A stretch of DNA of 36,354 nt. Source: Proteromonas lacertae. Lineage: Eukaryota. Both the position numbers and the translations under genes were made by a program. Under the pieces are notes generated by a model. It saw only the letters and a list, made by a program, of their open reading frames with translations. It did no database searches and was not told the origin of the DNA. This document shows positions 12,358-34,075 of this stretch, in pieces (the stretch's first letter is position 1; every line of letters starts with the position of its first letter). The DNA lies in contig NGBS01000643.1 of assembly GCA_002245135.1 (NCBI GenBank), positions 1 to 36,354 of the forward strand, read 5' to 3'.

Positions 12358-14301
12358 TTAATTCTTATTATTTTCTGTAATGATCTTTTTTAAACTATTA
12401 TCATATATAAAATTGTAAAGTAAAATATTATATTCTTTATTATAGTTTTTAACTTCTTCAACATTTTTGACACTCACTGTTTTAACATTCTTTCTCTCTA
12501 ATTCATCATTAATATGAAATTTGAATACCTTCTTTATTAGTTCATATTTAGACTTGGATAATCTATATAAAAGTGTCAATTTGTTAATATAATATTCATT
12601 TTCTAGTGACTCTCCATCTTCGATGTATCCAATTTCTTGACACTTTATTGATATATAATATTTCATTAATTGATGTTTCTTAGTATATAAAAATATTTGG
12701 TAATATATATTTTCTTAAACATATTAACTTCTAAACCGATATAATTTTGAAACTTTAATTTTGTTGATATTTTGTTTTAAATCATCTTCAATATCCATCA
12801 CGTCTTTAACACGCTCATATAAGGCATACTGTTTGTAAAATTTTCCTAAATATTTTAAGTTTACATCTGGATCGTATTTGATTGGGTGATCTTGTATTTT
12901 GATATTGGGATTTTTGTAAAATATGTTTCTTTTACTTCTATATCTAGAATATATTATTGTCTTATCTACATTTATATTTAATCCCATATTATTTAATTCC
13001 TCTGTTAAAATATGTGCCTGTTTCTTTAGATCCATATCACTTTCAGACATTAAGATTATATCATCAGCGTACGCTAATACTTTTACTCTTTCTCCATTTA
13101 AGTTCACTCCATAACTTTCTTTATCAATTCTATCTATTAAATCATTGACACATAAATCAAATATAATTGGCTATAATGGATCACCTTGTCTAACACCACG
13201 ATTTTTATTAATGTATTTGAAATATTCGTTTTTACATTTTATTTTCATTTTTAGGTTTCTAAATATCTTCATTATTACTTCATTATCTTTAATATTCAAC
13301 TTTTTTAATACATGTCCAATATAGTCAACGGGTATGTGATCAAATGCACCTTGAATATCTACAAATAACACATTAAGTTGCTTTAATTCAGTATCATCTT
13401 TATAATTTTGAATGATATTATTCAAGATGAAAATATTCTCTTCACATCCACTTTTTCCATTAATAAATCCGCGTTGACTTTTATTAAGCTTAATTTTATC
13501 ATTCTTTATTAACAATTGCAGATTGTCATTGATATACTTTGTATACATTTTGGATATAATATTTTGGAGTTGAATAGGTCTATAATTATTGATATCATCT
13601 TTTTTCTTATTCTTGTTAATCAATATAATTTTTGAAAGACTCCATTGATATGGGAGTTCTTTAATATATAGAAATCCATTGATCAACTCCACCATTAAAC
13701 TTCGAAGCAAGGAATTTTGTTTATACACTTTTAAAGGTATTCCATCTGGACCATAAGCTCCCTTAATATTCATTATGTTAATTATCCTCTTGAAGTCTCT
13801 TTCTGTAATATTCAAATCCAAATCAATTTCCTCATTCAACTTCAACTCTTCATCAACTTCTTTTATATTAATTTTCTTATCCATGTATAATTCTGATAAC
13901 TCTCTTTCAAAGTAATCAATTGATAGGGTTATGTCATTACTTGTATCATTTAGAATATTTTCCACTGTCGTTTTTTCGTTATATTTGAATTTAATATTAT
14001 CAGGAATTTCTATTACTCCATTCAGTTGAAGCTTATATTTATTCTTCTTAGTAATACTATCTGATAATATTATTTGAATTTTATCTGGATTTTCCTTAAT
14101 TTGATCTTTAATATAGTTTGGTAATTTATTATATTCTTTTGCTTCTATATTATTGATAACTTCTTCAAGATGATTGATTTCATCTGTAATATGCTTTTTA
14201 TAACCATTTGGTAGTTTAGGAATTCTATTCTTATTCTTATTGTTATTGTTATTATAAATTGTATTTAGGAATCTATGTATAATTGGTTTTATATTTTCCA
14301 T
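12358..14301 (-). CDS. Retrotransposon reverse transcriptase domain (one in-frame stop and frameshifts)
   Basis: GPDGI, NYRPIQL, QRGF, DIQGAFDHI, GVRQGDPL*P (TAG at 13171-13173), LAYADD, GLNINVDKT, KYLG. Confidence 0.95.
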
Positions 14302-14516
14302 TTGATTTTCACTGATTATAGTTGATCTATTTGGTATATATTGAACTAAATAAACATATCTATTTAATGTTTTTGTTAAACGATCATTTAATCTACAGTA
14401 TGTTGACTTTGATAAATTATCCTAGTTAATTTTATCGTACCAACAATTTGTTACACTGTGATTATTAATGTAGTATAAATGTAGATCAATGTTTGTTAAT
14501 CTTGGTACATCAGCAA

Positions 14517-15388
14517 TCATATCCTTATATTTTCTATATTGAAATTTTCATTCTCATTAAAATTTGTAAAATCTTGGTTAAAAGCTTGAGTATTTTCACT
14601 TTTTGATAAATCAACATTATCACCATTATTAATATCATTATTAACTTCATCAAGCTTGTAGTACTGTTTTGAATGCATCTGTGACTGATGCCTTGATAAA
14701 CTTATCTTTGAAGGAAATTTTCTGAAACATCCATCAAATTTACAAACATATTTATAATTTCCACTATGATTCTTGAGTTGATGTTTTGATATTGTATTTT
14801 TTGTAAAGTATTTATCGCAATATAAACATTGAACTATTTCAGAGTTAATTGATTTTTTCATTGTTTTTGGTATTTCATAACTGCTAGTATCTATATTTAC
14901 ATCTTCAAATTCTTTCAATATTTCATCTACATCTTTCATATCAACTTTATAATAATCATTTCTACTATTCATTACATTATTAACTAGTTCATCAGCTTCA
15001 TTCATTACTATATTATTATGTTTCATTAATTTCTCTTCTTTAACACTGAACTTACCATTTATTTGATTCACTAAGAGCTGACTATCCAAGAATATTATCA
15101 CATTTTTAAATCCCATTTTAATACATTCTCTTACTCCAAGTATTATTCCTACATATTCTGCTATATTATTGGTAGCGCATTCAATATATTTTTGAAATTT
15201 GTATATATTGTCTCCATTAAATATTACAGCACCACTTCCTGCTATTCTTAATATTATTGGCTCTTCAGATTCATCTAATGATGAGGATATATATATAACT
15301 ATTTCTTCTTCTTCATTCACTTTTACTATTTCATTTTCATATTCTATTTTTGTTGCGACTTCATTTACTGTATTATCAGAGATTGTAT
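14517..15388 (-). CDS. Retrotransposon RNase H-like domain plus two C2H2 zinc fingers
   Basis: AGSGAVI, TNNIAEY, FLDSQLLVNQING, NEADELVN resemble archaeal/plant-type RNase HI. The first catalytic Asp is not evident and part of the domain looks deleted. Fingers are CLYC..HQLKNH and CKFDGC..HQSQMH. The ORF-track N-terminus comes from element B. Confidence 0.8.
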
Positions 15389-15405
15389 TATATATATATA
15401 GTATA

Positions 15406-15604
15406 TAAATGGGACCCTGGGACATTGTCACAGAGTTCTAACGAGTGTTCTAGGGGTCCGTCCCTTTCTAGATTCAGAGTTGACTTTTACGGGAGCTTCA
15501 TCGATTGCATCGATGAAGCTCCCGTAAAGGTCAACTCTGAATCTAGAAGGGGACTCCTAGAACACTCGTTAGAACTCTGTGACAATGTCCCAGGGTCCCA
15601 TTTA
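15406..15604. repeat. Left terminal palindrome of element B
   Basis: Arms 15406-15505 and 15509-15604 are near-perfect reverse complements (one 4-nt gap, a few mismatches) around a TGC loop. Confidence 0.95.
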
Positions 15605-16050
15605 CGTAAGGTTCCTACGGGATTCCTCCCAACAGGGTCTACTTCTCAACAGGGTCTACTTCTATACGGGGACTCCTCTAAGCTATTTCCATACTTATCT
15701 ATGAGACGATCTCCTACGGGGACTCCTGGAAGCTATCTAGAAGTGTTGGTTACCTCGAGGTGATGAATCTAATCACGCTCTTGACTCTCCTTGCTACGCT
15801 GGTGACCTTGTAAGGGCTTTTAATTGAACCGTGGAAACCAATCGTGGAACCGGGAGTTTACAATTGGTAACAAGTTAACAATTGTAAACAAGTTACCAAA
15901 TGATAACTACGGGAGGTTCTAGCTAGTTATAGATTTCTCAAGGGCCCTTGAAGATAATGATTAGCAATCTCGGAAGGCTTCTGAAGGTATGCTTTTCTTA
16001 CTATATCTAGGAACAACCCGACAACTACAAGAGACTAACAAGACTGAGAA

Positions 16051-17154
16051 TTACTTAGTCGATGATAAATTAACTAGTGCGTCTAGAGCATCTTCCATTA
16101 CCTGGTGATTGCTTAGCTCAGAGAATCGTCTATCGATGTATTGCTTTAGCTGAGTGATGTTGAATTGCAAGGAGTAGGAGAATTGAAGGAGGTCCAATTC
16201 ATGAAGTAGATAATTACGAAGGCTAGCTGCTAGCTCAATTCCCTTGTAATATTGCGGGTCCTTGAGGATAGGTATATCAAAGATAGCACTTACTGATTGT
16301 TTCACTTGATCGTAGAAGCTACCAGTCACTGTTGATGGGAACTGAGTCTTGACTTCTCCGGTGCTTACATCTAAGCTACTTTCAAAGGCCTTACAATAGC
16401 TTTCTAACTCAAGGTGGATCTTATCGAATTGACTTACTACTTGAAGAACATTGTCCTGGACGATCATCCGATGAATATGAAGATTATCAATATCCTTGAA
16501 CCTGAAGTAGTTGATAAGCACTTGCCCGTAGTTGATAAGTAAACCATCCTTTACAGCTCTCAGTATCGATACTAAGTCCAAATTCTTACTTACCAGGTGC
16601 CTGTACCTTTTAATAGCAATATATGACTCCTTGCTCTTACATCGGAGATTCATCTTCATTGTTATCAATGCCTTATCATGATAGCAGTCCAAGGAAGTCC
16701 TCAGTAGTAGTAACTTGTAATGGGCTATGATCAATGGTAGGTATAAAGGATCGGTAATCTTGAAGCTCTTAAGTACTCCATCGTAAAGCTTAGAGATCTC
16801 AGTAAGTTGCGGACTTACCTTGTTGAAGACTTTAAGATAATCCTGAACGTTAATGGGAGTGTCTTCTACGTCCTTACCATGAATGATAGCAGAGTCCAGA
16901 GTTACCTTGCTATGGATTATCGGGCTGATGTACTTATCAATGGCTTCCTTGTTCCGATATGGTTTACCATCGATGCGTAGTTTAAGTAAAGTCATGGTGA
17001 TCTCTTCAATGGACTTACGATAGTTGGTAACTCTCTCTGTTAAGGTACGACGATAAATTCCAGGCATGACTTTCATTCTCGGCAAGTGGCTCTCAACTCT
17101 CGGAGTCTTTGAAGGTGCAATGGGAACGTAGCTATGTTTTCTCTTGACGGACAT
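16051..17154 (-). CDS. Element B orphan helical protein, family 1 (paralogue of 19289..20377)
   Basis: Intact 367-aa ORF with an N-terminal KRK. ILKDPQYY..LRNYLL matches ILNDPEYY..LRDYLL in the paralogue. Confidence 0.8.
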   Translation of the reverse strand: MSVKRKHSYVPIAPSKTPRVESHLPRMKVMPGIYRRTLTERVTNYRKSIEEITMTLLKLRIDGKPYRNKEAIDKYISPIIHSKVTLDSAIIHGKDVEDTPINVQDYLKVFNKVSPQLTEISKLYDGVLKSFKITDPLYLPLIIAHYKLLLLRTSLDCYHDKALITMKMNLRCKSKESYIAIKRYRHLVSKNLDLVSILRAVKDGLLINYGQVLINYFRFKDIDNLHIHRMIVQDNVLQVVSQFDKIHLELESYCKAFESSLDVSTGEVKTQFPSTVTGSFYDQVKQSVSAIFDIPILKDPQYYKGIELAASLRNYLLHELDLLQFSYSLQFNITQLKQYIDRRFSELSNHQVMEDALDALVNLSSTK

Positions 17155-17370
17155 TTGCGATGATGATTTTAAAGGAAAAGTACAACTACAGATTTCTGTC
17201 GATTCAAAGGACTGAGTTTACAATTACGACTTACCGATGTTAGTTGAATTAGTTTAAGGTATTATCAAGGACTAGGATAAGTTAATGAACAGGTAAGGCA
17301 AGACATCTACGATAAGGTAAAGTCATCGGGCAATCGATAGTAAGCAATTTTCTAGAGCTTCAAAGGAATC

Positions 17371-17946
17371 ATGTTCACTTGTAGTAAATGCCATCGGAAG
17401 CTACCTCAAGAACAGAAGAAGGATGGGAAGGGCTTCTACAAGAGATGCTATAGCTGCCGTGAGCGTGATGAGATTAATAGAAGACGATATCGACTTAAAT
17501 GTTTAGCACGAAGACAAGGCATAGAGTCAGGTAGAATTTCATCGGATGGAACACTACCTTGTTGTCTTTGCTATCATAACATACCGGTGAATTCATTCCT
17601 GAAGAAGACTGGAGGTTACTATAAGTGCTGCGATCAATGTAGGAGTATCAGCAAACAGTATCATAAGAGAATGAAGGAATTCAATCGCCAGCTCAACATC
17701 ATCGACAACTCCAATATTAAAGATGTTCAATCAACTAATCAAGGTAAAGTCATCTCCTCCGAGGAAGGTGCTTCTGATAAAGTTATACTCAAGGACTATC
17801 CCATACAGGTGAACTTATCGGTGTTAGCAAAGCCAGACAATGCCGAGGTAATCAACTCCGAGGAAGCGCATAAGGAGACGTTCATCGATCAAGTAAAGCG
17901 TGGATTCCAAGAGCTACTTAAGATGTTCGGACTCAACAAGAACTAG
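17371..17946 (+). CDS. Element B protein with two tandem CxxC...CxxCR zinc-binding repeats
   Basis: CSKC..GFYKRCYSCR and CCLC..GYYKCCDQCR, each followed by a basic helix. Confidence 0.75.
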   Translation: MFTCSKCHRKLPQEQKKDGKGFYKRCYSCRERDEINRRRYRLKCLARRQGIESGRISSDGTLPCCLCYHNIPVNSFLKKTGGYYKCCDQCRSISKQYHKRMKEFNRQLNIIDNSNIKDVQSTNQGKVISSEEGASDKVILKDYPIQVNLSVLAKPDNAEVINSEEAHKETFIDQVKRGFQELLKMFGLNKN

Positions 17947-18109
17947 GAACTGGGATCATGATCAAGACAATGATGAGTAAGTCAATGGAGGCCACTACAA
18001 TTAACTCAAGGAAGGTAAAGACCCGATAAGGAATAGACAAGGTACTGAAGGATAGGTGATCATCAGCTAGTTAGCAAATTCTCTTTACCTAGCAATTCAA
18101 GTCCCCAAC

Positions 18110-18397
18110 ATGAATATCATCCTCCGAGTAATTATAGTCTCCTTACAAGATGCCCTCAATTACTTATACGAGAACGATCTGCTAATGTTTATGCTCCTGA
18201 CTAACGTGATGGCAATTGGAATTATCGGTACCTTCCTTCTTTGTTTCAACTTTGCTAAGTGGTGTTGGACTTGTAGTAAGTGTTGTTGTAGATGGTGCTG
18301 CTTCCTCGGGAGTATTGTAGTTACCTTCATCGGCCTCTTCATAATAGTCACGATCATTACCTTGGTAAGCAATGGAACGCCCGTAGTTGTTAGTTAA
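18110..18397 (+). CDS. Element B small two-TM protein with Cys-rich loop
   Basis: Two hydrophobic segments separated by KWCWTCSKCCCRWCC. Confidence 0.6.
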   Translation: MNIILRVIIVSLQDALNYLYENDLLMFMLLTNVMAIGIIGTFLLCFNFAKWCWTCSKCCCRWCCFLGSIVVTFIGLFIIVTIITLVSNGTPVVVS

Positions 18398-18610
18398 GCC
18401 TTACAGCTTCGGTCTTTACAATGATGTGGTATGGGGATGATCATTAACAATAAACCAAGGAGTTCAAAGGCCTTTAAGTTAAAGATCTGAAGAAGATGGA
18501 AGCTCCCTAGAAGTCAACTCCGAGAAGACAGCTTCAAGAAGACAGCTTCAAGAACGTGACCATGAAGTTGTAACCCAACACAAGGCAAAGTAACTATGCT
18601 TATGATATTA

Positions 18611-19153
18611 TCAATAATAATAATTAGTCAAGGAGTTGATTAGGGATTCAGTATCGTCCAGGGACCTCTGGAGGCCATCAGCATCATCAATGATCATCTC
18701 CAGGTAGTTGAAGGATTCAGAAGGTGGAATGGCTAAATCATTATCATGAAGCTGTAGGAGTCGGTACTCACGGAGTGTAGAGAGCTTAGTACGGATGATT
18801 GAGTAGATCCCATAAATGTCAACGATGTCAGCTTCATGTAAACAACCATTGGGACTTCTATCTTGAGCAGCTAGCAAGTCATCACGATCTTTCATGATAA
18901 GGTAAGTCAAGGACCATAGTTCATCCCTAAGTTCTCCATGCCTGAGGTAATTCTCGAGATCATTATCTGAGTCGTAAAAGTTTAGCTGAGGGTGCTCCCT
19001 GATTAAGCTTCCCATCATTCTATTGTAGTGGTTGTAAAGAGTAGTGGATTTAAGAAGACATCTCCTGGTAAGCTTCACACACCTGTCTACAACCTGCTTA
19101 TCGATGACTCCATTAGCATTGATATTGAAATGGACTGGCGATCTCTTAGTCAT
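18611..19153 (-). CDS. Element B hypothetical protein (180 aa)
   Basis: Intact ORF. Its upstream context resembles that of the gene starting at 20377. Weak LIREHPQL similarity to family 2. Confidence 0.7.
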   Translation of the reverse strand: MTKRSPVHFNINANGVIDKQVVDRCVKLTRRCLLKSTTLYNHYNRMMGSLIREHPQLNFYDSDNDLENYLRHGELRDELWSLTYLIMKDRDDLLAAQDRSPNGCLHEADIVDIYGIYSIIRTKLSTLREYRLLQLHDNDLAIPPSESFNYLEMIIDDADGLQRSLDDTESLINSLTNYYY

Positions 19154-19288
19154 GATAAGTGCGTATGCAACTAAAGCAAGAGATTTTTTTCAAAGGTAAG
19201 GAAATTAATCAATACAGGAGATATTCAAGGAGATGATCAACCCAACACAAGACAAGAAGCAAAGGTAAGGACTAGATTATAACTTATG

Positions 19289-20377
19289 CTAGTTACTGAG
19301 AGTCTGGATTGCTATCGATGATATGGACAAGGATGATAGAATCTCTTGATCCTTGTGAGTTCTACGATCAACGATCTCCTTACCGAGTAGGTAATACTTA
19401 TTGATAAACTCCTTAAGGGACTTCGTAGCATTAGCCAGGCGATTGATCATAGGTAAGATGTTGAAGCAGTTAAGCAAGTAGTCTCGGAGTACACTTACTG
19501 AAGGAGATGCATTGTAGTACTCAGGATCGTTAAGGATGTCAAGACCATAAACACGATGGAAGGTAGCTTCTCCTAGCTCACGTAGATCAGTCCTTGGATC
19601 ACAAGTCCCTAGTAGTAATAGTTTTCTAGGATCAATGTTACGCCTTACGATATCCAGGTTATTATCAACTATCGCTAGCAACCCATTCAACTCATTGACG
19701 ATAACTGAGAACTGATCGTAGATCGCTTGATGGTACTTCTCGGACTTTGCTGGATCGTGATATTCAAGTGTAGTGAAGAGTAACCTACAATACCCAGTGA
19801 TGATCGTGGGGATTAAGCACTCTAGCTGTAAATGAACATCATAGGAAGCATCCTCCATCTCCTTCCAGGCATCCACAAGGAACTTCTCTTGGAGGTTGTG
19901 GACAATGACAGCTCCATGGAAATGTTGATGATAAGACTGCCCGTAGTACTTTATCTGGTTATTCAGAGAGTAAAGGTAATGCATGGAGGTGATCAAGTGA
20001 AAGGTCAAGGGATTGTGAGCTCCCCATCCAGCCTTGGTAGATTCGTAAAGTATCTCTAGTTCAACAAGGTCTTCTCGGAACTTGGCAAGGAGAAGACTAT
20101 AGCCTGGGTAAGATGGAGTTGTTCTGAAGAGCTTAAGTATCGGATCATTTTTCAATTGCTTATGGAGGATCTGAGTGATTGGGTTCAACAACTGAGGGAA
20201 ATGGAAGATGAAGGTCTTGTTAAGTAAGAGGTGGAAGATGATCGTGCATATCGGCTGAAGGCTCCTTAAATATCTACTGTGATGGAAGGATACTTGGAAG
20301 ATGCAATCATCTGGTAAGGCAAAGGCTCTTCGGAATGGATAGACAGGAGATGATACAATGGCTAAGTCAAAGTTCAT
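19289..20377 (-). CDS. Element B orphan helical protein, family 1
   Basis: Long intact ORF; first ATG is at 20377. Shares motifs with 16051..17154. Confidence 0.8.
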   Translation of the reverse strand: MNFDLAIVSSPVYPFRRAFALPDDCIFQVSFHHSRYLRSLQPICTIIFHLLLNKTFIFHFPQLLNPITQILHKQLKNDPILKLFRTTPSYPGYSLLLAKFREDLVELEILYESTKAGWGAHNPLTFHLITSMHYLYSLNNQIKYYGQSYHQHFHGAVIVHNLQEKFLVDAWKEMEDASYDVHLQLECLIPTIITGYCRLLFTTLEYHDPAKSEKYHQAIYDQFSVIVNELNGLLAIVDNNLDIVRRNIDPRKLLLLGTCDPRTDLRELGEATFHRVYGLDILNDPEYYNASPSVSVLRDYLLNCFNILPMINRLANATKSLKEFINKYYLLGKEIVDRRTHKDQEILSSLSISSIAIQTLSN

Positions 20378-20705
20378 GATAAGCAAAAGTAAAGATGAGA
20401 TTTTCAAAGGACCTAGAAATTTGCGAATGCCTGGAACGTCGATTCACAAGCTCCTGAGAATTGATTATCTGTAAAATGCAATTCAAGGTTATCCAAAAGT
20501 TTTATACCCCTAACTAACACCGTACACCAACTAACACCGTACCCCATACAGATTAGAGCTGGTAATTATGACCATGATAATGTCAATGAGGTAATTGTTA
20601 CAAGTACACATTACGGATGTTCATAGTTTTAATTCAAATTAGTTATGAAAACTAGTCGTTAGCAGTCCAACAACAAACAAGGTACTTAGAAAGAATAAGG
20701 TAAAG

Positions 20706-21786
20706 TTAATTATTATGCTCAAGGACAAGGGTAGTCTGGATCTTGTTTAAGGTATCGCTCAAGACTATCCAGCTCTTACGAAGATCTCTTAGAGAGTCAA
20801 CAACCAGCTTTAGCTTCTCTTCAGCTTTACTTCCCTCGTATACAAACTTATTCTTTGGTAGGAGTACTTCACACGTCTCAAAGAATTCCAGATCTTCATT
20901 GTCAGCCATAGGAAGGATATCTTCAAGGGCACTGATAATCCTTAGTAGACCAGCACCATTCATCAGATGGACTGTTGCATCAATGGGTTTAAACTCTTCC
21001 TTTAGATCCTCAAGGGACTCCTCCACATCCTCGTAATGCAACTGCTCAGGGTCGTTCTCAGCTAGGTATGGATGAGTAGCAATAAGCTCATTCTTATAGT
21101 CCTGGAATCGACTGGAGAAGTTATTCAGATGGTTACTTATATTCCTGGAAGTATCATTAGCTGTACCAAGCAATCCAAGGAAGGAACCAAAGTCAATGAA
21201 GTCAGGGTCTGGATGAACAGCTTCCTTGAAGTAGTTCATTAGCTTCTCGGCAGTGTCATAAGCCTTATCCACATAGCTACGCATATCCCGGATAACTCTG
21301 AAGGGATACTCACTGGTATCGTAGAGATCAGTAAGATGGTCCTGGACGCTTTCAATTGAATAATAGATGGAGCTTTGGATATTGAACCATGTATACTCAC
21401 CGTGCTTACCATTGAACTTTACTGGTAGCTTTTCAACTTATCGATATCCCCTTTAGCATCAATCAACTCATCGCAAGCAAGCACGAGCTTATCAAAGGCA
21501 GCATTGGGAAAGACGATCTTACCACGGGTCTCATTGAAGCAATTATCGAAGATACCTACCAAGGATTCATAAAGGGAACTGACACCAGCAACATACTTCT
21601 TGAGGAGTAAGGAACTATCAGTAGTTGTAAAAGCTTCAACATTATCAGGCTCATGTAGACTCGGAAGGATCTTTACCTAGTAGATGATAGTAAGGATTGG
21701 TATACTCTCTTGACCACTGGAGGAGATAGCTCATCCTCGGAGGAGTCAGAAATAACTGAAGTACACATACAAGATCGTTTTGACAT
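20706..21786 (-). CDS. Element B orphan protein, family 2 (frameshifted)
   Basis: Starts MSKR at 21786. FNETRGKIVFPN..FD, YTWF, DFIDFG, HPYLAENDPE match the neighbouring gene. Confidence 0.7.
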
Positions 21787-22048
21787 GGTAAATTACGTAA
21801 TTGACAAAGTATTAGAAGCGCAAGAAATTTGAAACTAGATGAAGTGTCGATTCATAAGCATTAATTGTAAAATGCCAAGATGCAATACATAGTACCAATG
21901 TACTAGGTATTGATAGTAAGTACACAGTACTATTGTATTTAGTTATTGTCAGAATAGATTTGAAAAGTAGTCGTTATCAACCCCAGAACAACAACAACAA
22001 GGTACTTAAGAAAGGTACTTAACATGGTACTTAACAAGAAGCTTAAGT

Positions 22049-23007
22049 TTATTCATCATCCTTATACTCACCACTAACCACTCTAGAGAGCTTAGTAAAG
22101 GCATCAACAGCGATAGACCAGTTCTTCTTGATACCCACAATGGATTCAATTACTTGCTTCAACAGTTCCTCAGCCATGTCTCCTTCGGGAATCAACATAT
22201 TATGCAGTTGTAGTATTTCTTCTTTCTCAAGGAACTCAAAGATGTCCTTGTAGTCATCTATAGGATCTAGCTTCTCCAAGGTATCCTCGATATTTTGGAG
22301 AAGACATGTTAGAAATGAACTAGTACCATGGCATATATTACTATCTGCATCCTTCAATTCCTTAAAGCACTTTTCTACCATCCTACAGCCTAACAACTCA
22401 GGGTTATGTTCAGCTAAGTATGGATGATGCTTGTAAAGCTCCTTCTTATACTCCGGGAATTTCTTCTCTCTCAAATCCTCCAGGGAGCGTTCAAATTCAT
22501 GTTGAGAGTGAAGGAATATATCTTCCACTCTTCGGTAAGTACCGAAGTCAACAAATCCATCCTCATCCTTTGGAGTGTCCAATAAACAATTCAAGACCCT
22601 TTCAATAACTTCAGCAGCTTCATTGATGTACTCAGTAAATGGTGCAGTAACAGACTGAGGGCGTGTCTGAAGCTCAGTTAAATTAATTTCCCTTCCTTTG
22701 ATAGACAAGTATATGGAGGCTTGTTTACGGAACCAATGATATCTAGCATCCTGCATTCGTACTTTGAAGGTATCAATTCAATCTCATGGAGTTCATACAG
22801 AACATCCTCCCAGCCACGGTATATTTCGAATAGTCTATCGAAGACGTAATTTGGAAAGAAGAACTTACCGCTGGTCTCTCGGAAGGCTTTATCCATACAA
22901 TCAGCCCAGGACTGATGAGCAGCTAGGAGATCAGCAAGGTACTTTTTATGCTGAGGAGATAGCTTAAAGGATCCAGAAGTCTTCATGTCAGTATCTCTTT
23001 TTGACAT
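22049..23007 (-). CDS. Element B orphan protein, family 2 (one frameshift near 22760)
   Basis: ORFs 22678..23007 and 22049..22756. MSKR, FRETSGKFFFPN..FD, YHWF, GFVDFG, HPYLAEHNPE. Confidence 0.75.
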
Positions 23008-23358
23008 GGTAAATTAGGTAATTGACAAAGTTTAAAAAAGTGTAAGAAATTTGAAACTAGAAGAAGTGTCGATTCATAACCATTAATTGTAAAATGGAAT
23101 TAGTACCAGTGTATTGGGTATTAGTCAAAATAGAATTGAATTTAGTAGTTACAAGATAGTCATAATAGAATTGCAAACTAGTCGTTTCAATATATGAAGG
23201 TATATATACATGATTGAAGGTTCATTTCCTTGGGGGGCGTAGCCCGAATGGTCAGAGGAATGCCCTAGGAAGTACTAGCCCAGCCGGGTAGCCCAGCAGG
23301 GTTCAAATCTTGCAAAGGAAATAAAAGTTAAATAGGCGCAGCGCAGCGAGCATGAGAA

Positions 23359-23457
23359 AGATCCCCGTAGGGAAATAGACCCCGTAGGAAGTATACGCCG
23401 TAGGGAAGAAGACCCCGTTGAGAAGTAGACCCTGTTGGGAGGAATCCCGTAGGAACC
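23359..23457. repeat. Degenerate 17-18-bp subterminal tandem repeats of element B
   Basis: About six units like GACCCCGTAGGGAAGTA. Inverted counterparts at about 15612-15725, and related units in element A (about 3640-3665 and 5385-5418). Confidence 0.75.
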
Positions 23458-23462
23458 TTACG

Positions 23463-23633
23463 TAAATGGGACCCTGGAACATTGTCACAGAGTTCGAAGG
23501 AGTGTTCTAGGAGTCCGTCCCTTTCTAGATGCAATCGATGAAGCTCCCGTAAAGGTCAACTCTGAATCTAGAAGGGGACGGACTCCTAGAACACTCCTTC
23601 GAACTCTGTGACAATGTCCCAGGGTCCCATTTA
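23463..23633. repeat. Right terminal palindrome of element B (inner arm lacks about 30 nt next to the loop)
   Basis: TAAATGGGACCCTGG...CCAGGGTCCCATTTA with self-complementary arms. Confidence 0.9.
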
Positions 23634-23654
23634 TATACTATATATATATATATA

Positions 23655-23892
23655 CCCAAATGATCATCATTTTCTTCAATACTTGGAATGGTTAGTTTAT
23701 AATTATCACTAAAGGATGTATTTTCATTATTATTGTTGTTATTATTATTATTATTTTCATTATCACAGTTTTCTTTGATGATTTCATTATTGTTTTCATT
23801 TTTACTGTTTTTAAATATAATGTTCAGATCTTCCAATATATATTCCATGTTATTATGGTTCTTTCTGGCGTGTGGCTTTATAGCATTATATG
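23655..23892 (-). CDS. Retrotransposon ORF segment between elements C and B (second half of a C2H2 finger and Asn-rich linker)
   Basis: YNAIKPHARKNHNNMEYILEDL...EENDDHLG completes the CSGC finger begun in 27139..28653. Confidence 0.85.
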
Positions 23893-24174
23893 ATAATAAT
23901 ATATATTAAGGGCTACAGACCCAAAATGGCTTGACGCTAGACCACGAGGCTTGACGCTGGACCCGAGGCTAAAATAAAAATAGCCGTTTCATTTTTTGAA
24001 TTTTTAAAAATTGGAATTTTTGTATTTTTAAACTGGCGGTTTGTGAATCAAGCTTTTTTGAAATTTGAAGTATGGCGAGTACGGGCCTGTGCTTATGCAC
24101 AGTTTTTTTTATGTTTTTTTTTTTTTTAAGTATCAAAAAAAGCATTTAGAGTCATAATTCAATCATAAAAACAA

Positions 24175-24459
24175 TTAATGAGTTGAATTAATTAATCTAC
24201 TGACGGGTCCTTCTTCTTCAGGTAAATCTTGCTCATCAATTGTTCGCATTTTTGTAACCGTTCTTGTTTTGTAACGTTTTGTGCGACCGTTGGTTGTCAT
24301 GACAGCGTAACTGCGCTTCTTTGGCACTTCATCATCGTCATTGGTTAAATCGATGATGAAATGCGCTATTGAAAAATAAATTGAATGTGTATTTATACAA
24401 GGTTCATTGTTTTCAGTTGTTAATTCAACTGCTTCTTTAGGATTAATGGGTGAAGACAT
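24175..24459 (-). CDS. Element C small protein with SIM-like IIDLT-acidic motif and basic patch; probable 33-nt intron 24366-24398
   Basis: MSSPINPKEA...FIIDLTNDDDEVPKKR. An in-frame GTATAAAT...CAATAG segment resembles host introns. Confidence 0.55.
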   Translation of the reverse strand: MSSPINPKEAVELTTENNEPCINTHSIYFSIAHFIIDLTNDDDEVPKKRSYAVMTTNGRTKRYKTRTVTKMRTIDEQDLPEEEGPVSRLINSTH

Positions 24460-25199
24460 TTTTTCAATAATTTTAAGATTAATTGTAATTTTCAAAATAG
24501 ATTTGAATGAATAGTATAGAATTCCTATATAAAATTTAAATTCTATTTTGAACTAATCATTATAACTAAAAAATAGTTTTTGGCGCGAAAACCAATTAAG
24601 CTAGCTCGCGCTAAATTATTAAAACTCGCTAGTTTTTTTAAATAATTCAAATTTTAGACAGAGAGCGCGCGAAATTTAAAAATTCAAAAATTCAAATTTT
24701 TAAATTTGCCTAAAATGCCGTTTCATCATTTTCAAAAATGACGAAACACAATAATTCTGAAACGGTTCTTCAATTTCATTTCGGACAAGCCAAATAATTA
24801 TTTTCAAAATGAATTTGCAAGCCAATTTCTTATTTTTCAAATTAAATTAAAATTTGATGCACAAACCAACCGTTCAAGTCAAACCTCGTCAAAATAGATT
24901 TGAATTTTCTAAGAAATTTCTTCATATTCTATTTTTGACACAACGTTTGAGAATTATTCTTCAATCGACATTGTACAAAATGAATCGTCACTTATACTTT
25001 ATTTTAGGCAATTATTTAGTCTAGCGGTTTAACCGTTGCTATTCAAATGATGAAAAAGCGTTCGAATCTCAATAGCAAGTTTCTTTTTTTTAAAAAAGTA
25101 AAATAGTCGTTTTACTTTCCCTAAATGATGAGTCGTTTCACTTTCCCTAAAAAAATAGCCGTTTATTATATAATAAAAAATTAATTCGTTACAAATTAT

Positions 25200-25436
25200 T
25201 TAAACTGTGTGCTTTCTTTTATTCACAATGTCTATATATGCCTTTATATCTTCTAATGTCTTGTCATGCTGCAAGCCTTTCTCCATCATATCAGTCATAT
25301 TTGAACGAATGTCTGCGATATCTACCTCATTTGGAATACAATTGTGTGCTTTGAAGTATTTGTACAGTGCCAGAGCGAGCATATAGAGTATAAATACTAA
25401 TACAGAGAGTAAAATTGTCATTATATCGTTCCCCAT
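25200..25436 (-). CDS. Element C small membrane-anchored coiled-coil protein
   Basis: N-terminal TM followed by an amphipathic helix; 78 aa. Confidence 0.55.
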   Translation of the reverse strand: MGNDIMTILLSVLVFILYMLALALYKYFKAHNCIPNEVDIADIRSNMTDMMEKGLQHDKTLEDIKAYIDIVNKRKHTV

Positions 25437-25468
25437 AAGAAAAATTTTAAATCAATTAACAATAAAAA

Positions 25469-26092
25469 TTAAAAAATAATACAATTAGGTCTTATAATGC
25501 TTTTATCTGTTATTGATTTTGGACTTAAACTAGGAACTGAATTAACAGGAGACAAGTCTTCTAAACCACTTAAACTGTTTACATTCGATTTTGTGACCGG
25601 TTTTACGTAATTTACCTCTTCTTTTACCTTAATTTCGTCATCTTTTATATCAATTATCTCTTGTGGAGGTAAAAAATCCTCTTCTTCCTTCTTATGTAAT
25701 GCTAAAATCTGTTCTAACATCATTCTTGTCTTCTTTTGACCTGCAATTCTGTGTTCTTTGTGTTTACTTAAGGCTTGAGCGAAGCTTGAAGCAGTTAGTT
25801 TTGGCGCGTTAAGAGGTACTTTTACTTGTTCAATGATTGGTCCATTAAAACAACCTGTCTTAAACTTTGATTCTATGTAATATTTGTACTCATCTTCGAT
25901 GTATTTCAATATATATCTTATCTCTGAGTATGTAAGTCTTGATTTTGATCCTGAAATTAAATGATATAATTTCGATTTTGTGGGAGCTCTGATTTTACCG
26001 TCTTTTCTGAAGCTTCTGATGATTACTTGTTTGTCTAATTCTGTTAATTTGAATGGAACTGTTCTATGTTTAGGTTTTTTATTATCTTCCAT
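25469..26092 (-). CDS. Element C hypothetical basic protein (207 aa)
   Basis: Intact ATG-initiated ORF with a possible helical DNA-binding N-terminus. No catalytic motif recognised. Confidence 0.65.
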   Translation of the reverse strand: MEDNKKPKHRTVPFKLTELDKQVIIRSFRKDGKIRAPTKSKLYHLISGSKSRLTYSEIRYILKYIEDEYKYYIESKFKTGCFNGPIIEQVKVPLNAPKLTASSFAQALSKHKEHRIAGQKKTRMMLEQILALHKKEEEDFLPPQEIIDIKDDEIKVKEEVNYVKPVTKSNVNSLSGLEDLSPVNSVPSLSPKSITDKSIIRPNCIIF

Positions 26093-26169
26093 AAAATAAA
26101 AATAGTGTCAATATTACTAATATTACCAATATTGACATTATTATTTTTTTGGATTAGAGAGATATAACA

Positions 26170-26547
26170 ATGGTTCAAGAAGAAATACCATTTTGGATCA
26201 AAGTTTTTAATAGCATTAGAGAATTAGCATTAAATGGATATACAGAAATTCATTTCTTATATTATTTAGAAGAGAGCATAGCTAATCTAGCAAAGTTAAA
26301 AGCTATACTAGACAAAGTTAAGCATTATTATACTAATCAGTATGCAACGAAAAAAAGATTGGAAATTATCACATATTTAGATAATATTAGAAAAGATGGT
26401 AATAGATTTAAGAAAGAATTAATTGAGAATAATCAATTATTTATTGATAACAAATTAGATTACGCAGTTAATGGATTACTATCTTTATTATGTGATGCTT
26501 TAGCAGCTAGAGTGAAAATGGATGCAGATATCAAAAAAAAGAAGTAA
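26170..26547 (+). CDS. Element C hypothetical helical protein (125 aa)
   Basis: Intact ORF, divergent from 25469..26092 across 77 bp, ending KKKK. Confidence 0.6.
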   Translation: MVQEEIPFWIKVFNSIRELALNGYTEIHFLYYLEESIANLAKLKAILDKVKHYYTNQYATKKRLEIITYLDNIRKDGNRFKKELIENNQLFIDNKLDYAVNGLLSLLCDALAARVKMDADIKKKK

Positions 26548-27155
26548 GTAAATATGAATTTATCTAATTATGATTAAATAATTATATATTTTAAATACTA
26601 ATACAGAGATTAATTAAAATAAAAAGAAGACTGTGTGTTTTTAAGGGTTTATTTAAAATAACATAAAAAATCCATAACCGATTCTTCTTACCCTTTCTTT
26701 TTTTCACTTCCTTACTTAGGGAAAGTGAAGTCGATCACTTTTCTCTAGGTAAATAAGTGAAAAAAAGAAAGGGAAAGGAAAATCGATTATGAAATCCGCA
26801 TTTCAAAAACTAAATGAGTAAAAGAAAAGGGAAAGTGAAAACAAGGGAAAGTGAAAACGAGTCTTAGGTGGTGTATATGGCCTTCCTAAGGTTTATATCA
26901 GTCTCTATAACATAATTGAACAAATGTTTACAACGGACGGCAGTTACACCGTCAGTTACACGTCAGTTATGTAACTGACATGTAACGGATTCATAACGAC
27001 CGTTAAAACCGTTGTACAAATGAACGGTTATTGAATAAAATGAAAAATTCAAAAAATGAAACGGCTATTTTTATTTTAGCCTCGGGTCCAGCGTCAAGCC
27101 TCGTGGTCTAGCGTCAAGCCATTTTGGGTCTGTAGCCCTTAATATATATTATTAT

Positions 27156-28653
27156 TATATGCTACTTCTTTGCCACATCCAGAACACATATATTTGATGA
27201 ATTTACCATTAATCTTATTCTTTGTAGCTTTTGTGATAGTGACTTGAGAAAAGTTTGACTGAATATTAATATTTTCATTATTATTGTTATTATCGTTATT
27301 AATGTTAATGTTATTATCTTCTTTGAATGTTGTTATTTCGTCTTTAGATGCATCAGATTTATTATTAGTATTGTCATTTCTTACTCTTTTCTTGTATGCT
27401 AATAATGTCACTCCTTTCTGAAATTTTGTGGCATCTTCAACTTCTGTGATGACTAATCCATTTATTTTGTAATATTTTCCATCATTTTCATTTTTAACTA
27501 TTATGAAATAATGACCAGACATACCATTACCATCGTATACAATTAATATTTGTAAGAAGTATTCTCTATTATTATAGCTAATTGGATACGTTACAGCACT
27601 GTTCGTAGATGTTCTATTTATTTCTACAACAAAACTGTCACCACATTTATATAAAGAATTTGTTTTCTTTTTGATCCAATAGTTACATCCATTACAATAA
27701 TTTAATTCGTCTAATTCTGTATTGTAAAATTTAAGATCAACTGCTTTACCTGTATTGATGGTGTTATGGATGAATAACATTTTCTTGTGGTAAACACTTT
27801 TAATTCGACATTCATTACATTCCTCATGGTATTCTAAATTTACTTTACATCTTAATTCATTTTCTTCATCCATATCATACAATAGAGTGTTGAAGACATC
27901 TAATGCATCTCCTTCATTGTTGTGACATATTTTTAAATAATCTTTGATTATTTGGATGTTGTTTTCTTCTACCGCCTTTTTGATCATCTGCATGATCTTT
28001 CCATTATTAAGATTCATATAATACAAAGTTTGAGTAGCTGCAGTAATATAACAGCTATTGTTGGGATAATTCATTCCTTTAAAATATACCTTATTTACTC
28101 CACCCAACAATTTAATTATTCTTATATCATCTTTCAACTCACTATGATAGTTATTCACATTTTCTGTTTCTTTGGCTTCTAAATAATTAATTTCTTTGTC
28201 TACAGTGTATATACCATATTCTGAGGGTTTTAATATATTTTTTGAATCTAATTTCAGACATTTAAATATTAAATCGTCTTCTTGGTTTTCGCCATATATA
28301 CTAATCTTGTAGATATTACTAGTATTATTCATATATATTATAAATTTTCTATTATATAAGATATTTGAAATTAGGTTTTGAAATTTGGAATGTTCTATCT
28401 TCCTCTTAGCATTTGTATCTTCATTTTGGCCTATAGAATCACGTTCTGGTATCGGCAAATCTTTTAAGAAAAATTGACTAAATTCTGTAGGATAATCTGT
28501 ATTATGTGTAATAATTTCGGTGTAAGAATTACTTTTATATTTTGTACTATTGATTTGTAGTATTATATCTAGATAACTTGGTTTGTTTTTTGAATATTTG
28601 CCTGATTGACTTTTAGATTTTAATTTTGAGCTGTGGAATGTGTTACCCAGCAT
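27156..28653 (-). CDS. Retrotransposon ORF N-terminus with USP/peptidase C19-like domain
   Basis: Cys box GMNYPNNSCYITAATQTL, EGDALDVF..LL, CNEC/CNGC, His box IVYDGNGMSGHYFIIVK..YYKING. Ends at YMCSGCGKEVAY where element C interrupts it. Confidence 0.85.
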
Positions 28654-28719
28654 AAGACAATTAAAATCTTATATAAAACAAAGCAAAAAAGTCAAAAATA
28701 AATGACTCTAAAAAAATTC

Positions 28720-28791
28720 AGGCCCTGCCGAGATTTGAACTCGGATTATTGGATTCAAAGTCCAATGTGCTAACCATTACACCACAGAGCC
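28720..28791 (-). tRNA. tRNA-Gln (anticodon TTG)
   Basis: GGCTCTG/CAGGGCC acceptor stem, TGGTGTAATGG A-box, TTGGA-CTTTGAA-TCCAA anticodon arm, GTTCAAATC T-loop, T7 terminator downstream. Confidence 0.97.
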
Positions 28792-31111: not shown

Positions 31112-34075
31112 TTATATTTCAATTTCTGTTGCTTTGGGTTTTCTAATATGACGCATTGTACTTCCAGGAATCGTTGGTTTAAATGGAGCATGTGATCCAT
31201 AAGGTTTAGGTAATGGAACATCAGTTGGTAAATAAGCATTAGGTCTAGGTTCTGCTGTTGTTTTAACAGTTGGACTACCAAATTGATTAGCCAATGTACT
31301 AGCTATTTGATTACGTTGTTTCTCTTGTTTTCTTTCTATTGCTAATAAACGATCTCTTTCTAATCTGTACCAATCATGAACTGCTTCTTCAGTTGGAGCT
31401 TCTCCATGTTCTAATTTATAAGTTGCATCTTCTAACAATTTCTCTCTTTCAGCTTTCTCTTGTTCTAACTTCAAGGCTGTTGCTTGATACATTGATAATT
31501 CAGAGACTGTAGCCATCATGGATCTTGTTAAATCCTTTAATTTTGATTGTAATTCATTCACTTGTTTTGCTATTGATAAAGTTCCATCTCTACCTTCTTT
31601 AGCTTGTTGTCTTAATTTCTCACTTAATACAGTCACTTCTTCTAACACTAATTCTTTCTCCAATAATTGTTCTTTCTTCTTCTCAAATCGATCTTGAATT
31701 ACTTCTAATTTGGCAGTCATTTGTTCCATATCTAAATCATCACCTGGTAATGGATTCCATCTTTGTAAATTCTCAGGAGTTTCTAAATCTTTACACAATT
31801 TCTCAGTCATTTCTCTTTCCTGTTGTAATTCTAATCTTAATTGATTTACTTCTTCTAATAACACAGGTACTTTTGGTATTTGTTTTCTTACTACATCAAT
31901 TTGTCTATCAACTTCATTTATTGTTACTTCCAACATTCTTACTTCTTCTTCTCTTTCTTTTAAACTAATTTCACCCTTTTTCAGAGTTTCTTCTTGTATA
32001 TTACTCTTTTCATATAAAATACATAATTCATCATTTCTATCGATTAATTGAACACCCATGAAATTTCTAGCCTCAACTGCTCTTTCATATTCTCTCTTTA
32101 ATTTCAACATTTCTCTTTCTATTGTATTGATTACAGAATTTAATTTATCTATTCTCATAATCTGTTGTTCTATTTCTTCTTGTTTTTCACGATATAAAGC
32201 TTGATTCTTGTTTGATTCAGATCTTAAAGCATCTCTTTCATATTTTGCTTTCTCATGATCTAATCTTTCATTTGTAAGTGCTCTATCTTTAGCCAAACTC
32301 TCTCCTTTCAATATTTCCACCTCATTTGTCAATATTCTTATCTTTTCATTCATTTCAGCTAATTGTTGATTACTACCTTGAATTAAGTTAACATATTTAT
32401 TTCTTTCATTTTTAACAACATCATATAATGCAGAAAATTCTTTTAATTTTACATTCATATCATTTGCTCTTTTAGTTAAATCCATTATAGTCAATTGCTT
32501 CATTTGTAAATCATTCTGAGCATTCTTTTCATTCTGTAAAGCTTGAGAAGAAGCTCGAGCTTGTAATTCTCTTTGTGTATTTAAAATAGCAATCATTTTA
32601 TTCATTTTCCTAACTTCTTCACTCCATTGATCTAACTGTAATTCCTGTTCATCCTTTTGCTTTCTCAATATATTCAAAGCAACTTTCTGCTTCTCTTCTA
32701 ATTTCTCTTGACCTAAGAATTGTGCTATTAATATTTCAGTTTCAACTTCAACATTTTCTAATGAATGTTTGGCTCTTTCAACTTCACTTTGATTGTATGA
32801 TAATTGGTGTTTAGCATCAATTACTTGTCCATCCATTATTGGATATTGTGCTTTAATTCCATCGCCTATTTCTATTTCTCTTTTTAAATCTCTTTTTAAT
32901 TGCTTATATTGTTTATTTTCATAATTTATTGCTTCTGTTAATTGTCTACCTTCACTCTTTAAGTTTTGCGCTGTCATATCTAATTCTACTCTCTTTTCTC
33001 GATGATTTTGATCTTGTATCTCCTGCTCTTGTATACTTTTCTGTAATAAATTAATTTCTGCATCTTTTCTAGCGATTTCTGCTCTAATTGCATCATTCTT
33101 TTTACATGCTTCTTCATATTGAGATTTTAATAATGTTTTCACTTTATCTTGTTTCTTTAATTGTGTATTTACTTCACTTACTTGTGTATTAAAGGCTTGT
33201 AAATCTTTAGACATTGAATTTACTGCATTTTTAACTATATCTCCTTGTTTTCTTAATCGAGATGGCTCGCCTTTCAATTTTTCTAAATTTTGCCTTTCTT
33301 CATCTAATGTTTTGGTTAAATTTTGTTTATCTTTTGTTAATTGTTCTACTTTTTTAATATAATCATCTCTCTTTTTATTCTCTCCTTCTATTAATGCATT
33401 TAACTTCTTTTCTTCGTCAATTAAAGAATGAATTTCATCTCTAGTTCGTTGAAGTGCTGGTAATACAATTGCTTCATTTTCCTTTTGTACTTGTTCTAAT
33501 TTTGATTTTTCTTCATTTTCTGTTTCTCTATAGATATAATAATAATTGAAAATGTATATATTTATCTATACTCTCATTTCTGCCAGTTTATATTGCAATA
33601 TATCATTAGCTTCTTCACATTCATTTAATTCTTTTTGAGCTTTTTCTTTCTCTTTATCCATATTTTGACACATTTGACTATTTTCTACATTTCTTATTGA
33701 CATTTTTTCTAATTTTATTTTTTCTGATAGAAAATCTTGATTTAACTCTTTGGCTTTCTTTAGTAGCAATTTTTCTCTTTCGTATGTTTCTAATACATAA
33801 CTATGTAGTGTAGCATATTCTTTTTTATATAAATCAGCACTAGTAATATTAAAATACAACCATATACGTTGAATCACTAATAATGCCATCTTCTGCTAGT
33901 TTAGTTAAAAATGTATATGCTGGACTATTTGATATATCTTTAACATCTCCAATTATTCCTGCTGCAGTTTCCATTTCTTCTATATAAAAGATTAACACAT
34001 TAATTCAAAATAAAAAGTTAAAACAAGTTATATGTATATACCTGCATCTTTCTCATCTTCATTTTGATCAGACAT
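31112..34075 (-). CDS. CCDC146: Coiled-coil axonemal protein CCDC146/MBO2 homologue (three short 5' introns)
   Basis: LYDVVKNERNKYV, GVQLIDRNDELCILYEK, MMATVSELSMYQ, TTAEPRPNAYLP..LPKPYG..APFKP..PGSTMRHIRKP. Probable start is MSDQNEDEKD at 34075. Confidence 0.88.

Follow-up and report, generated by a model that had tools for sequence, protein, structure and literature searches.

What moves a gene-rich DNA element that ends in long palindromes and in which no mobility enzyme is detected? The question is raised by an 8250-bp element (15395-23644), here called the focal element, in a 36,354-nt stretch of Proteromonas lacertae DNA (contig NGBS01000643.1), the whole of which is referred to as the window. 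All results on the focal element and on a smaller sister element come from this one window of one assembly, and composition, repeats, target site duplications (TSDs) and open reading frames (ORFs) were computed on the window sequence only. The focal element is best read as working like a dependent of Polinton, polinton-like virus (PLV) or virophage viruses while belonging to no autonomous family. Specifically, we propose, with a probability of roughly 0.55, that it is a non-autonomous, cargo-only dependent of such a family with palindromic terminal inverted repeats (TIRs), integrated in trans. TIRs of ~270 bp and a 6-bp TSD, CATGGA, at the sister element are consistent with this reading.

The boundaries of the focal element were placed by comparison with the sister element, and the features of both are as follows.

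3566..5510: sister element, 1945 bp, with the same tips but its own, different ORFs; CATGGA stands on either side (3560-3565 and 5511-5516)
15389..15394: left TSD of the focal element, TATATA; boundary taken from the sister element, uninformative alone within a TA run
15395..15405, plus strand: left 11-nt tip outside the palindrome, beginning TATATAG, same in the sister element
15395..15669, plus strand: left TIR
15406..15604: left palindrome, arms of 100 and 96 nt, 3-nt loop
15630..15663: left 17-bp tandem repeat, 2 copies
15719..15981, plus strand: noncoding subterminal region in common with the sister element, 79-97% identical in two blocks
23363..23440: right 17-bp tandem repeat, 4.6 copies
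23398..23644, minus strand: right TIR
23463..23633: right palindrome, outer arm of 100 nt and inner arm of 71 nt, with 29 nt missing beside the axis
23645..23650: right TSD, TATATA

The first-pass annotation had given the focal element AG…CT ends, the 5'-AG…CT-3' form that is the rule for Polinton termini. The sister element contradicts this assignment: AG and CT sit 5 nt inside its tips. Because the perfect 20-nt inverted repeat at its ends extends 5 nt outward of AG/CT and is bordered by CATGGA, the family tips are very probably TATATAG…CTATATA with a 6-bp TSD, judging from the sequence of the two elements, and thus differ from the AG of Polintons. CATGGA lies on both sides of the sister element, a match found for about 1 in 1000 random 6-mer pairs in window DNA, while the focal copy by itself cannot choose between the two sets of ends. 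The first 20 nt are identical in the focal and sister elements, and TATATA stands at all four tips as a short tandem repeat. The earlier claim of insertion into (TA)n is only partly borne out: since the tips begin TATATAG, part of (TA)n is sequence of the element itself. The TIRs (15400-15669 versus 23398-23639) are 84% identical with gaps. GC content is well above that of the host, as had been noticed (~40%, compared with 20-26% in the flanks), and the tandem repeats described next to the palindromes were found inward of both.

Each palindrome starts 11 nt inward of the tip, within the TIR and next to the TSD. The claim that the TIRs are themselves long palindromes was confirmed for the left end with the arms and loop as described and for the right end likewise, minus 29 nt of the inner arm. 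Both ends are far more stable than shuffled sequences (folding z = -27 on the left and -18 on the right; 0/200 shuffles equally stable in either case). In a four-arm comparison, both left arms are alike and both right arms are alike at positions 34 and 37, while left differs from right. This pattern needs either two mutations and copying within the hairpin or four matched mutations, and it is likely that copying or correction has taken place within each hairpin. Positions 60 and 80 have a crosswise pattern, as after hairpin transfer; the loop is not flipped, being oriented alike at the two ends. A hairpin intermediate gains some support from the arm-to-arm homogenization within each end, but a pure hairpin-ended replicon fits less well, given the 11-nt tip outside the palindrome, which would be replaced under rolling-hairpin replication alone. 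Parvovirus and adeno-associated virus termini are long palindromes, full in duplex form, with arms kept alike by copying. Unlike these viruses, the focal element has no detected HUH Rep or capsid, its palindromes stop short of the tips, and it belongs with a 6-bp TSD.

The palindromes of the sister element are reduced, the left to a 9-bp stem and the right to its outer arm, and its ends fold no better than shuffles (z = -1.6 and -0.9). Intact palindromes were thus either unneeded for insertion of the sister or lost later. Its left inner remnant and right outer arm have three changes in common relative to the focal arms. Because the remnant carries these family-specific changes, the palindromic design would be older than the divergence of the two families, a point against an artefact. 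An origin of the palindromes as fold-back artefacts, introduced by sequencing or assembly into an ordinary TIR element, is in our view highly improbable. Frame changes in two cargo genes (F and G, below) lie in short A runs, a few codons apart, and such breaks in homopolymers do suggest residual consensus errors. However, both ends fold about the same axis with the same inner boundary, their arms differ by substitutions and deletions, and the independently inserted sister keeps its diverged inner-arm remnant with that same boundary.

The sister, which goes unmentioned in the first-pass annotation, is the second GC-rich block in the window. Its arms are 79 to 84% identical to those of the focal element, ~220 nt of left subterminal sequence is also in common, and the trinucleotide signatures of the two elements agree closely (r = 0.94, versus 0.45 to 0.60 against host genes and retroelement). 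No gene is common to the two interiors (tblastn, none at E <= 0.1). One sister ORF (4854-5129, minus strand) looks strand-rich by eye and has a weak Pfam match to the OB-fold protein Rpb8 (E = 0.039); it is possible that it encodes a single-strand binding protein.

Ends, left subterminal region and composition that are alike around interiors with no common gene would also be expected if the two elements belonged, as segments or satellites, to an undescribed multipartite linear DNA replicon, with common ends, differing genes, and the replication and integration genes on another segment. The homogenized arms and the two crosswise sites (60 and 80) resemble hairpin transfer as well. We nevertheless regard a multipartite replicon as unlikely. 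The 11-nt tip is unlike the sequence inside the palindrome, and simple rolling-hairpin replication would be expected to overwrite it; the loop has one orientation at both ends; the sister has no intact palindromes; arms only ~80% identical are low for co-replicating segments; and a 6-bp TSD points to a known kind of integrase. A fuller form of this idea, in which many integrated protist DNAs with palindromic ends would carry different, long-conserved sets of orphan genes under their own promoters, replicate by hairpins, and be integrated and perhaps packaged by one helper, seems similarly doubtful.

No mobility enzyme was detected in the focal element by Pfam, PHROGs, NCBIfam or motif scans, in agreement with the earlier statement that no transposase or replicase is visible. 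A polB motif was absent from stop-free stretches of >60 aa (the longest has 388 codons) and polB had no Pfam match. An rve integrase had no match in Pfam, PHROGs or NCBIfam, and structure models of ORF A and gene G are all-helical, albeit of low confidence. For a packaging ATPase there was no Walker A motif in any stop-free stretch of >60 aa and no Pfam match. An HUH Rep with SF3 helicase likewise had no Pfam match, and such stretches contain neither an HUH motif nor Walker A. A double jelly-roll capsid had no Pfam match, and the long ORFs are predicted to be helical rather than beta in the low-confidence models. Neither a pPolB-S1H replication protein nor a protease was detected among the ORFs of the element. 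Since the ends make 6-bp duplications and no enzyme is detected inside, a helper is implied.

Under the proposed dependent lifestyle, a larger Polinton-, PLV- or virophage-type relative elsewhere in the genome would supply a retroviral-type (rve) integrase, which would bind the conserved tip and insert the linear DNA with a 6-nt stagger. Each end would at some stage be single-stranded and folded back, so that its arms could be copied or corrected against each other; the terminal hairpin may prime replication or may be a by-product. The interior would be an exchangeable payload of promoter-plus-gene cassettes, enlarged by tandem duplication and under selection as protein. Mavericks/Polintons are marked by 6-bp TSDs and TIRs of hundreds of bases (PMC8969392), rve integrases typically give TSDs of 6 bp (PMC12220804), and Polintons have terminal tandem repeats of 1-3 bp (PMC4196379). 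The earlier suggestions of movement in trans and of a link to Polintons are supported by the 6-bp TSD and the short tandem repeat at the tip, but the AG…CT ends give them no support. Two other TIR elements in the window, described below, have 6- and 5-bp TSDs and short tandem tips, which we also count in favor of this mechanism.

The cargo consists of seven ORFs that occupy 5641 of the 8250 nt (68%).

16051..17154, minus strand: ORF A, orphan of 367 aa, all-helical by prediction, distantly paralogous to E
17198..17205, minus strand: GAATCGAC motif, 43 nt upstream of ORF A
17371..17946, plus strand: ORF B, orphan of 191 aa with four CxxC pairs, likely zinc-binding
18110..18397, plus strand: ORF C, 95 aa, hydrophobic and cysteine-rich, likely membrane protein
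18611..19153, minus strand: ORF D, 180 aa, orphan, no significant matches
19289..20377, minus strand: ORF E, 362 aa, orphan, paralog of A
20438..20445, minus strand: GAATCGAC motif, 60 nt upstream of ORF E
20706..21786, minus strand: gene F, two interruptions (a candidate 29-nt intron or indel at 21677-21705 and a frame change near 21430), paralog of G
21846..21853, minus strand: GAATCGAC motif, 59 nt upstream of gene F
22049..23007, minus strand: gene G, with a single frame change near 22770 and a C-terminal part predicted to be all-helical
23068..23075, minus strand: GAATCGAC motif, 60 nt upstream of gene G

The two longest stop-free stretches have 388 and 384 codons, whereas none exceeded 176 codons in 200 sequences simulated with matching dinucleotide composition. 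A and E, with 17% identity (z = 10.5; 0/200 shuffles), form one paralog pair, and F and G, with 29% identity over 245 aa (z = 39.5), form another; no relationship between the two pairs is detectable. Identity between F and G is 0.48, 0.62 and 0.44 at the first, second and third codon positions, so that the second position is best conserved, and both pairs appear to be old and under purifying selection. Such pairs fit the standing gene set of a multipartite replicon better than they fit decaying leftovers. Exact GAATCGAC has 5 matches in the window (0.47 expected; 0/100 shuffles reach 5), 4 of which lie 43 to 60 nt before A, E, F and G, and 215 nt around the starts of F and G are alike at 75%. 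Because the motif precedes all four genes and the F and G starts are similar over this length, the interior appears to have grown by duplication of promoter-plus-gene cassettes. A second motif, TAGTCGTT, has 4 matches (0.55 expected): three, at 20653, 21968 and 23179, lie in spacers upstream of the genes E, F and G, and the other, at 25104, belongs to a neighboring 3.3-kb element. A TTGTxGGGTT-like string after five of the stops is weak, its 7 matches at one mismatch being within chance (10/100 shuffles).

The description of the cargo as seven intronless orphan genes holds for the number of ORFs, for the lack of detected relatives and for the five that are uninterrupted, but F and G are each interrupted, and one of the two breaks in F is compatible with an intron of host type (29 nt) or with an indel. 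A conserved intron behind the frame change common to F and G was considered and set aside: no GT-AG solution was found by eye in F, and separate indels, or errors in the consensus, are the likelier cause. In G, an HxxR string that recalls tyrosine recombinases was likewise rejected, as it is absent from the paralog F.

Searches for relatives of the cargo proteins covered A/E and F/G in very large protein sets and every ORF in the family libraries, and all came back blank. Pfam, PHROGs and NCBIfam gave no credible match for any ORF of the focal element, PDB sequences gave nothing below E = 0.04, and Rfam found only tRNA in the window. Among 5.8 billion proteins, 0/2077 candidates matched ORF A at E <= 0.01 (lengths of 201-643 only); an A/E profile had 0 matches at E <= 0.001 among 1.84 billion representatives; and 0/3907 candidates (lengths of 133-426 only) matched the F/G alignment in a large protein set. 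An exact protein look-up found 0/10 window proteins, and since even the ORF of the host gene CCDC146 was absent, this blank says little. Pattern matches in viral contigs for A, F/G, B and E numbered 13, 227, 12 and 11, none of them confirmed; a 16-nt tip pattern had 31 loci in viral contigs, none with further similarity, and two end patterns had 0 matches in metagenome contigs. The structure comparison called for by the first-pass annotation was run on low-confidence models of A and G (pLDDT of 45 and 51), both all-helical, and returned only generic helix bundles (best Z = 12.9, root mean square deviation [rmsd] 3.2, 160 residues aligned, to a designed protein; Z = 9.2, rmsd 3.6, 154 aligned), with 0 matches to viral structures at E <= 0.001. 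In the ESM Atlas, E scored 0.93 to clusters of dynein heavy-chain tails, which is a lead only (recognition is low and there is no such Pfam domain), and the best score for G was 0.79. Our guess is that the cargo proteins (helical bundles, a zinc-binding protein and a small membrane protein) are accessory proteins of host or virus interaction, not enzymes.

Cargo of this kind has also to be weighed against an ordinary origin, in which the focal element would be a non-autonomous DNA transposon of the cut-and-paste kind that carries genes, has foldback-type ends and is mobilized by an ordinary DDE transposase, with palindromes arising by local inverted duplication. TIRs with internal tandem repeats, the absence of a viral gene among the matches, and the possible host-type intron in F would all suit such a transposon. 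MULE, P/Galileo and most hAT elements, however, make TSDs of 8-11 bp, and the 6-bp TSD of the sister differs from what Foldback, MULE and P-Galileo elements leave. The cargo has no host-like relatives, its GC content is nearly twice that of the host, and its upstream motifs are element specific, unlike captured host fragments. Insect transposon families with protein-coding cargo only are on record (10.1101/2025.02.07.637071), yet on balance we consider a transposon of this type unlikely. A toxin-antidote element considered as an example flanked by a Maverick was discarded, since it is located in a MULE.

Several points weigh against a dependent of Polinton-, PLV- or virophage-type viruses. A TSD of 6 bp is not unique to rve integrases and is also made by hAT6 transposons. 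The link to a helper family is drawn from end anatomy in a single window, in which no helper was seen, and the ORFs tested show no similarity to genes of known Polintons, PLVs or virophages. The arm pattern consists of two sites in one assembly and could reflect mis-mapping of reads during polishing. The host (retroelement) ORF that the focal element splits comes back in frame with AG…CT ends, whether 0 or 6 nt are removed; with the revised ends, 16 nt are removed and the frame is not restored, barring slippage of a TA unit. Slippage of one TA unit in the 15-nt run, or earlier decay of an already fragmented retroelement, would reconcile this conflict. Finally, the TSDs of the EMALE virophages are mostly 3-5 bp and their genes are without introns (PMC8547959), whereas F may hold one.

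The closest precedent for the ends comes from Halocafeteria seosinensis, in which virophage subtypes 1, 2, 5 and 6 and PLV subtype 4 have palindromes in TIRs adjoining TSDs (10.64898/2026.07.28.741278). There, the palindromes occur preferentially in elements without pPolB, a hairpin-priming model is proposed and left untested, fragments without most core genes sometimes retain TIRs and TSDs, insertion into long interspersed nuclear elements (LINEs) is described, and PLVs are noted in Proteromonas. The focal element is thus similar to the H. seosinensis virophages and PLVs in its stramenopile host, palindromes in TIRs next to TSDs, GC contrast with the host, insertion into a LINE, and likeness to core-gene-poor fragments. 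In comparison, the palindromic elements of H. seosinensis are ~24 kb long and encode capsids, ATPase, rve integrase and replicase, while the focal element has 8.25 kb and no core gene detected; the palindromes of subtype 5 are 52 nt, versus ~200 nt here, and the focal element differs further in being GC-richer than its host.

Polintons/Mavericks are alike in TIRs of hundreds of bases, a 6-bp TSD, a short tandem repeat at the tip and several mostly intronless ORFs in both orientations, but they are 15-40 kb long, compared with 8250 bp, and carry the polymerase, ATPase and capsid that were not detected in the focal element (PMC8969392, PMC4196379, PMC6431247). EMALE virophages of Cafeteria burkhardae are likewise TIR elements integrated in the genome of a stramenopile, and their ORFs are preceded by motifs specific to each type; besides their shorter TSDs and intron-free genes, they have 17-21 genes with morphogenesis and replication modules, and no palindrome is mentioned in the main text of that study (PMC8547959). 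Transpovirons resemble the focal element as capsid-less, helper-dependent linear DNA and are descended from PLVs, but all encode a pPolB-helicase replication protein, none of which was detected here (PMC11161782).

The end design is therefore not new, given the 2026 precedent, and the enzyme-free form with swapped cargo is a variant of it. This weakens the earlier remark that no named class has this combination (10.64898/2026.07.28.741278), although a literature search (subscription journals lying outside it) found no paper devoted to a cargo-only, palindrome-ended family. It also turned up no instance of old paralogous orphan genes in a cargo-only form, of two unrelated payloads within a single end type, or of sequence evidence for copying within a hairpin. 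Surveys of integrated protist DNA viruses start mainly from capsid genes (PMC10120064), so enzyme-free, gene-rich passengers would be missed. End-specific changes common to both arms bear on whether terminal palindromes in virophages and PLVs work as hairpins or arose by accident (10.64898/2026.07.28.741278), and many copies in one genome would make this a countable test. Two unrelated payloads in one end type would mark a route for orphan gene families to enter and spread in protist genomes.

The focal element is inserted in a decayed non-long-terminal-repeat (non-LTR) retrotransposon (11329-28791, minus strand) whose target appears to be tRNA-Gln. On its two sides lie a complete tRNA gene (28720-28791) and an exact 35-nt copy of the 3' half of that gene (11329-11364). 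The ORF order of the retrotransposon is a USP-like cysteine protease (Pfam UCH, E = 3.5e-4), a C2H2 finger, RNase H (RVT_3), two C2H2 fingers, reverse transcriptase and, by eye, a restriction-like endonuclease. The position of RNase H upstream of the reverse transcriptase, together with the USP-like protease, may be an unusual architecture. The same retroelement is split ~250 bp from the focal element by a second, unrelated TIR element (23893-27155; 3263 bp) with a perfect 113-nt TIR, tips ATAATAAT and a 6-bp TSD, TATATG. This element has its own composition, four orphan ORFs and an internal hairpin with 52-bp arms at 26673-26791.

The host gene CCDC146/MBO2, a flagellar gene at 31112-34075 (minus strand), has three apparent introns of 62, 28 and 44 nt in its 5' part (range, 28-62 nt), beginning GTATA, and its GC content rises in a long last exon. 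Its best named matches are oomycetes and other stramenopiles at ~50% identity, with a further record, P0001, at 98.5%, and since stramenopiles match best among the named records, the host is a flagellated stramenopile and, at a guess, belongs to a gut lineage resembling opalinates. A third TIR family is represented at 8109-11281 by an element with TGTTGT tips, a 5-bp TSD (ACACT), a decayed interior and a weak Ulp1 protease match (E = 0.02), and the stray end of another TGTTGT-tip copy lies just upstream of it at 7949-8002.

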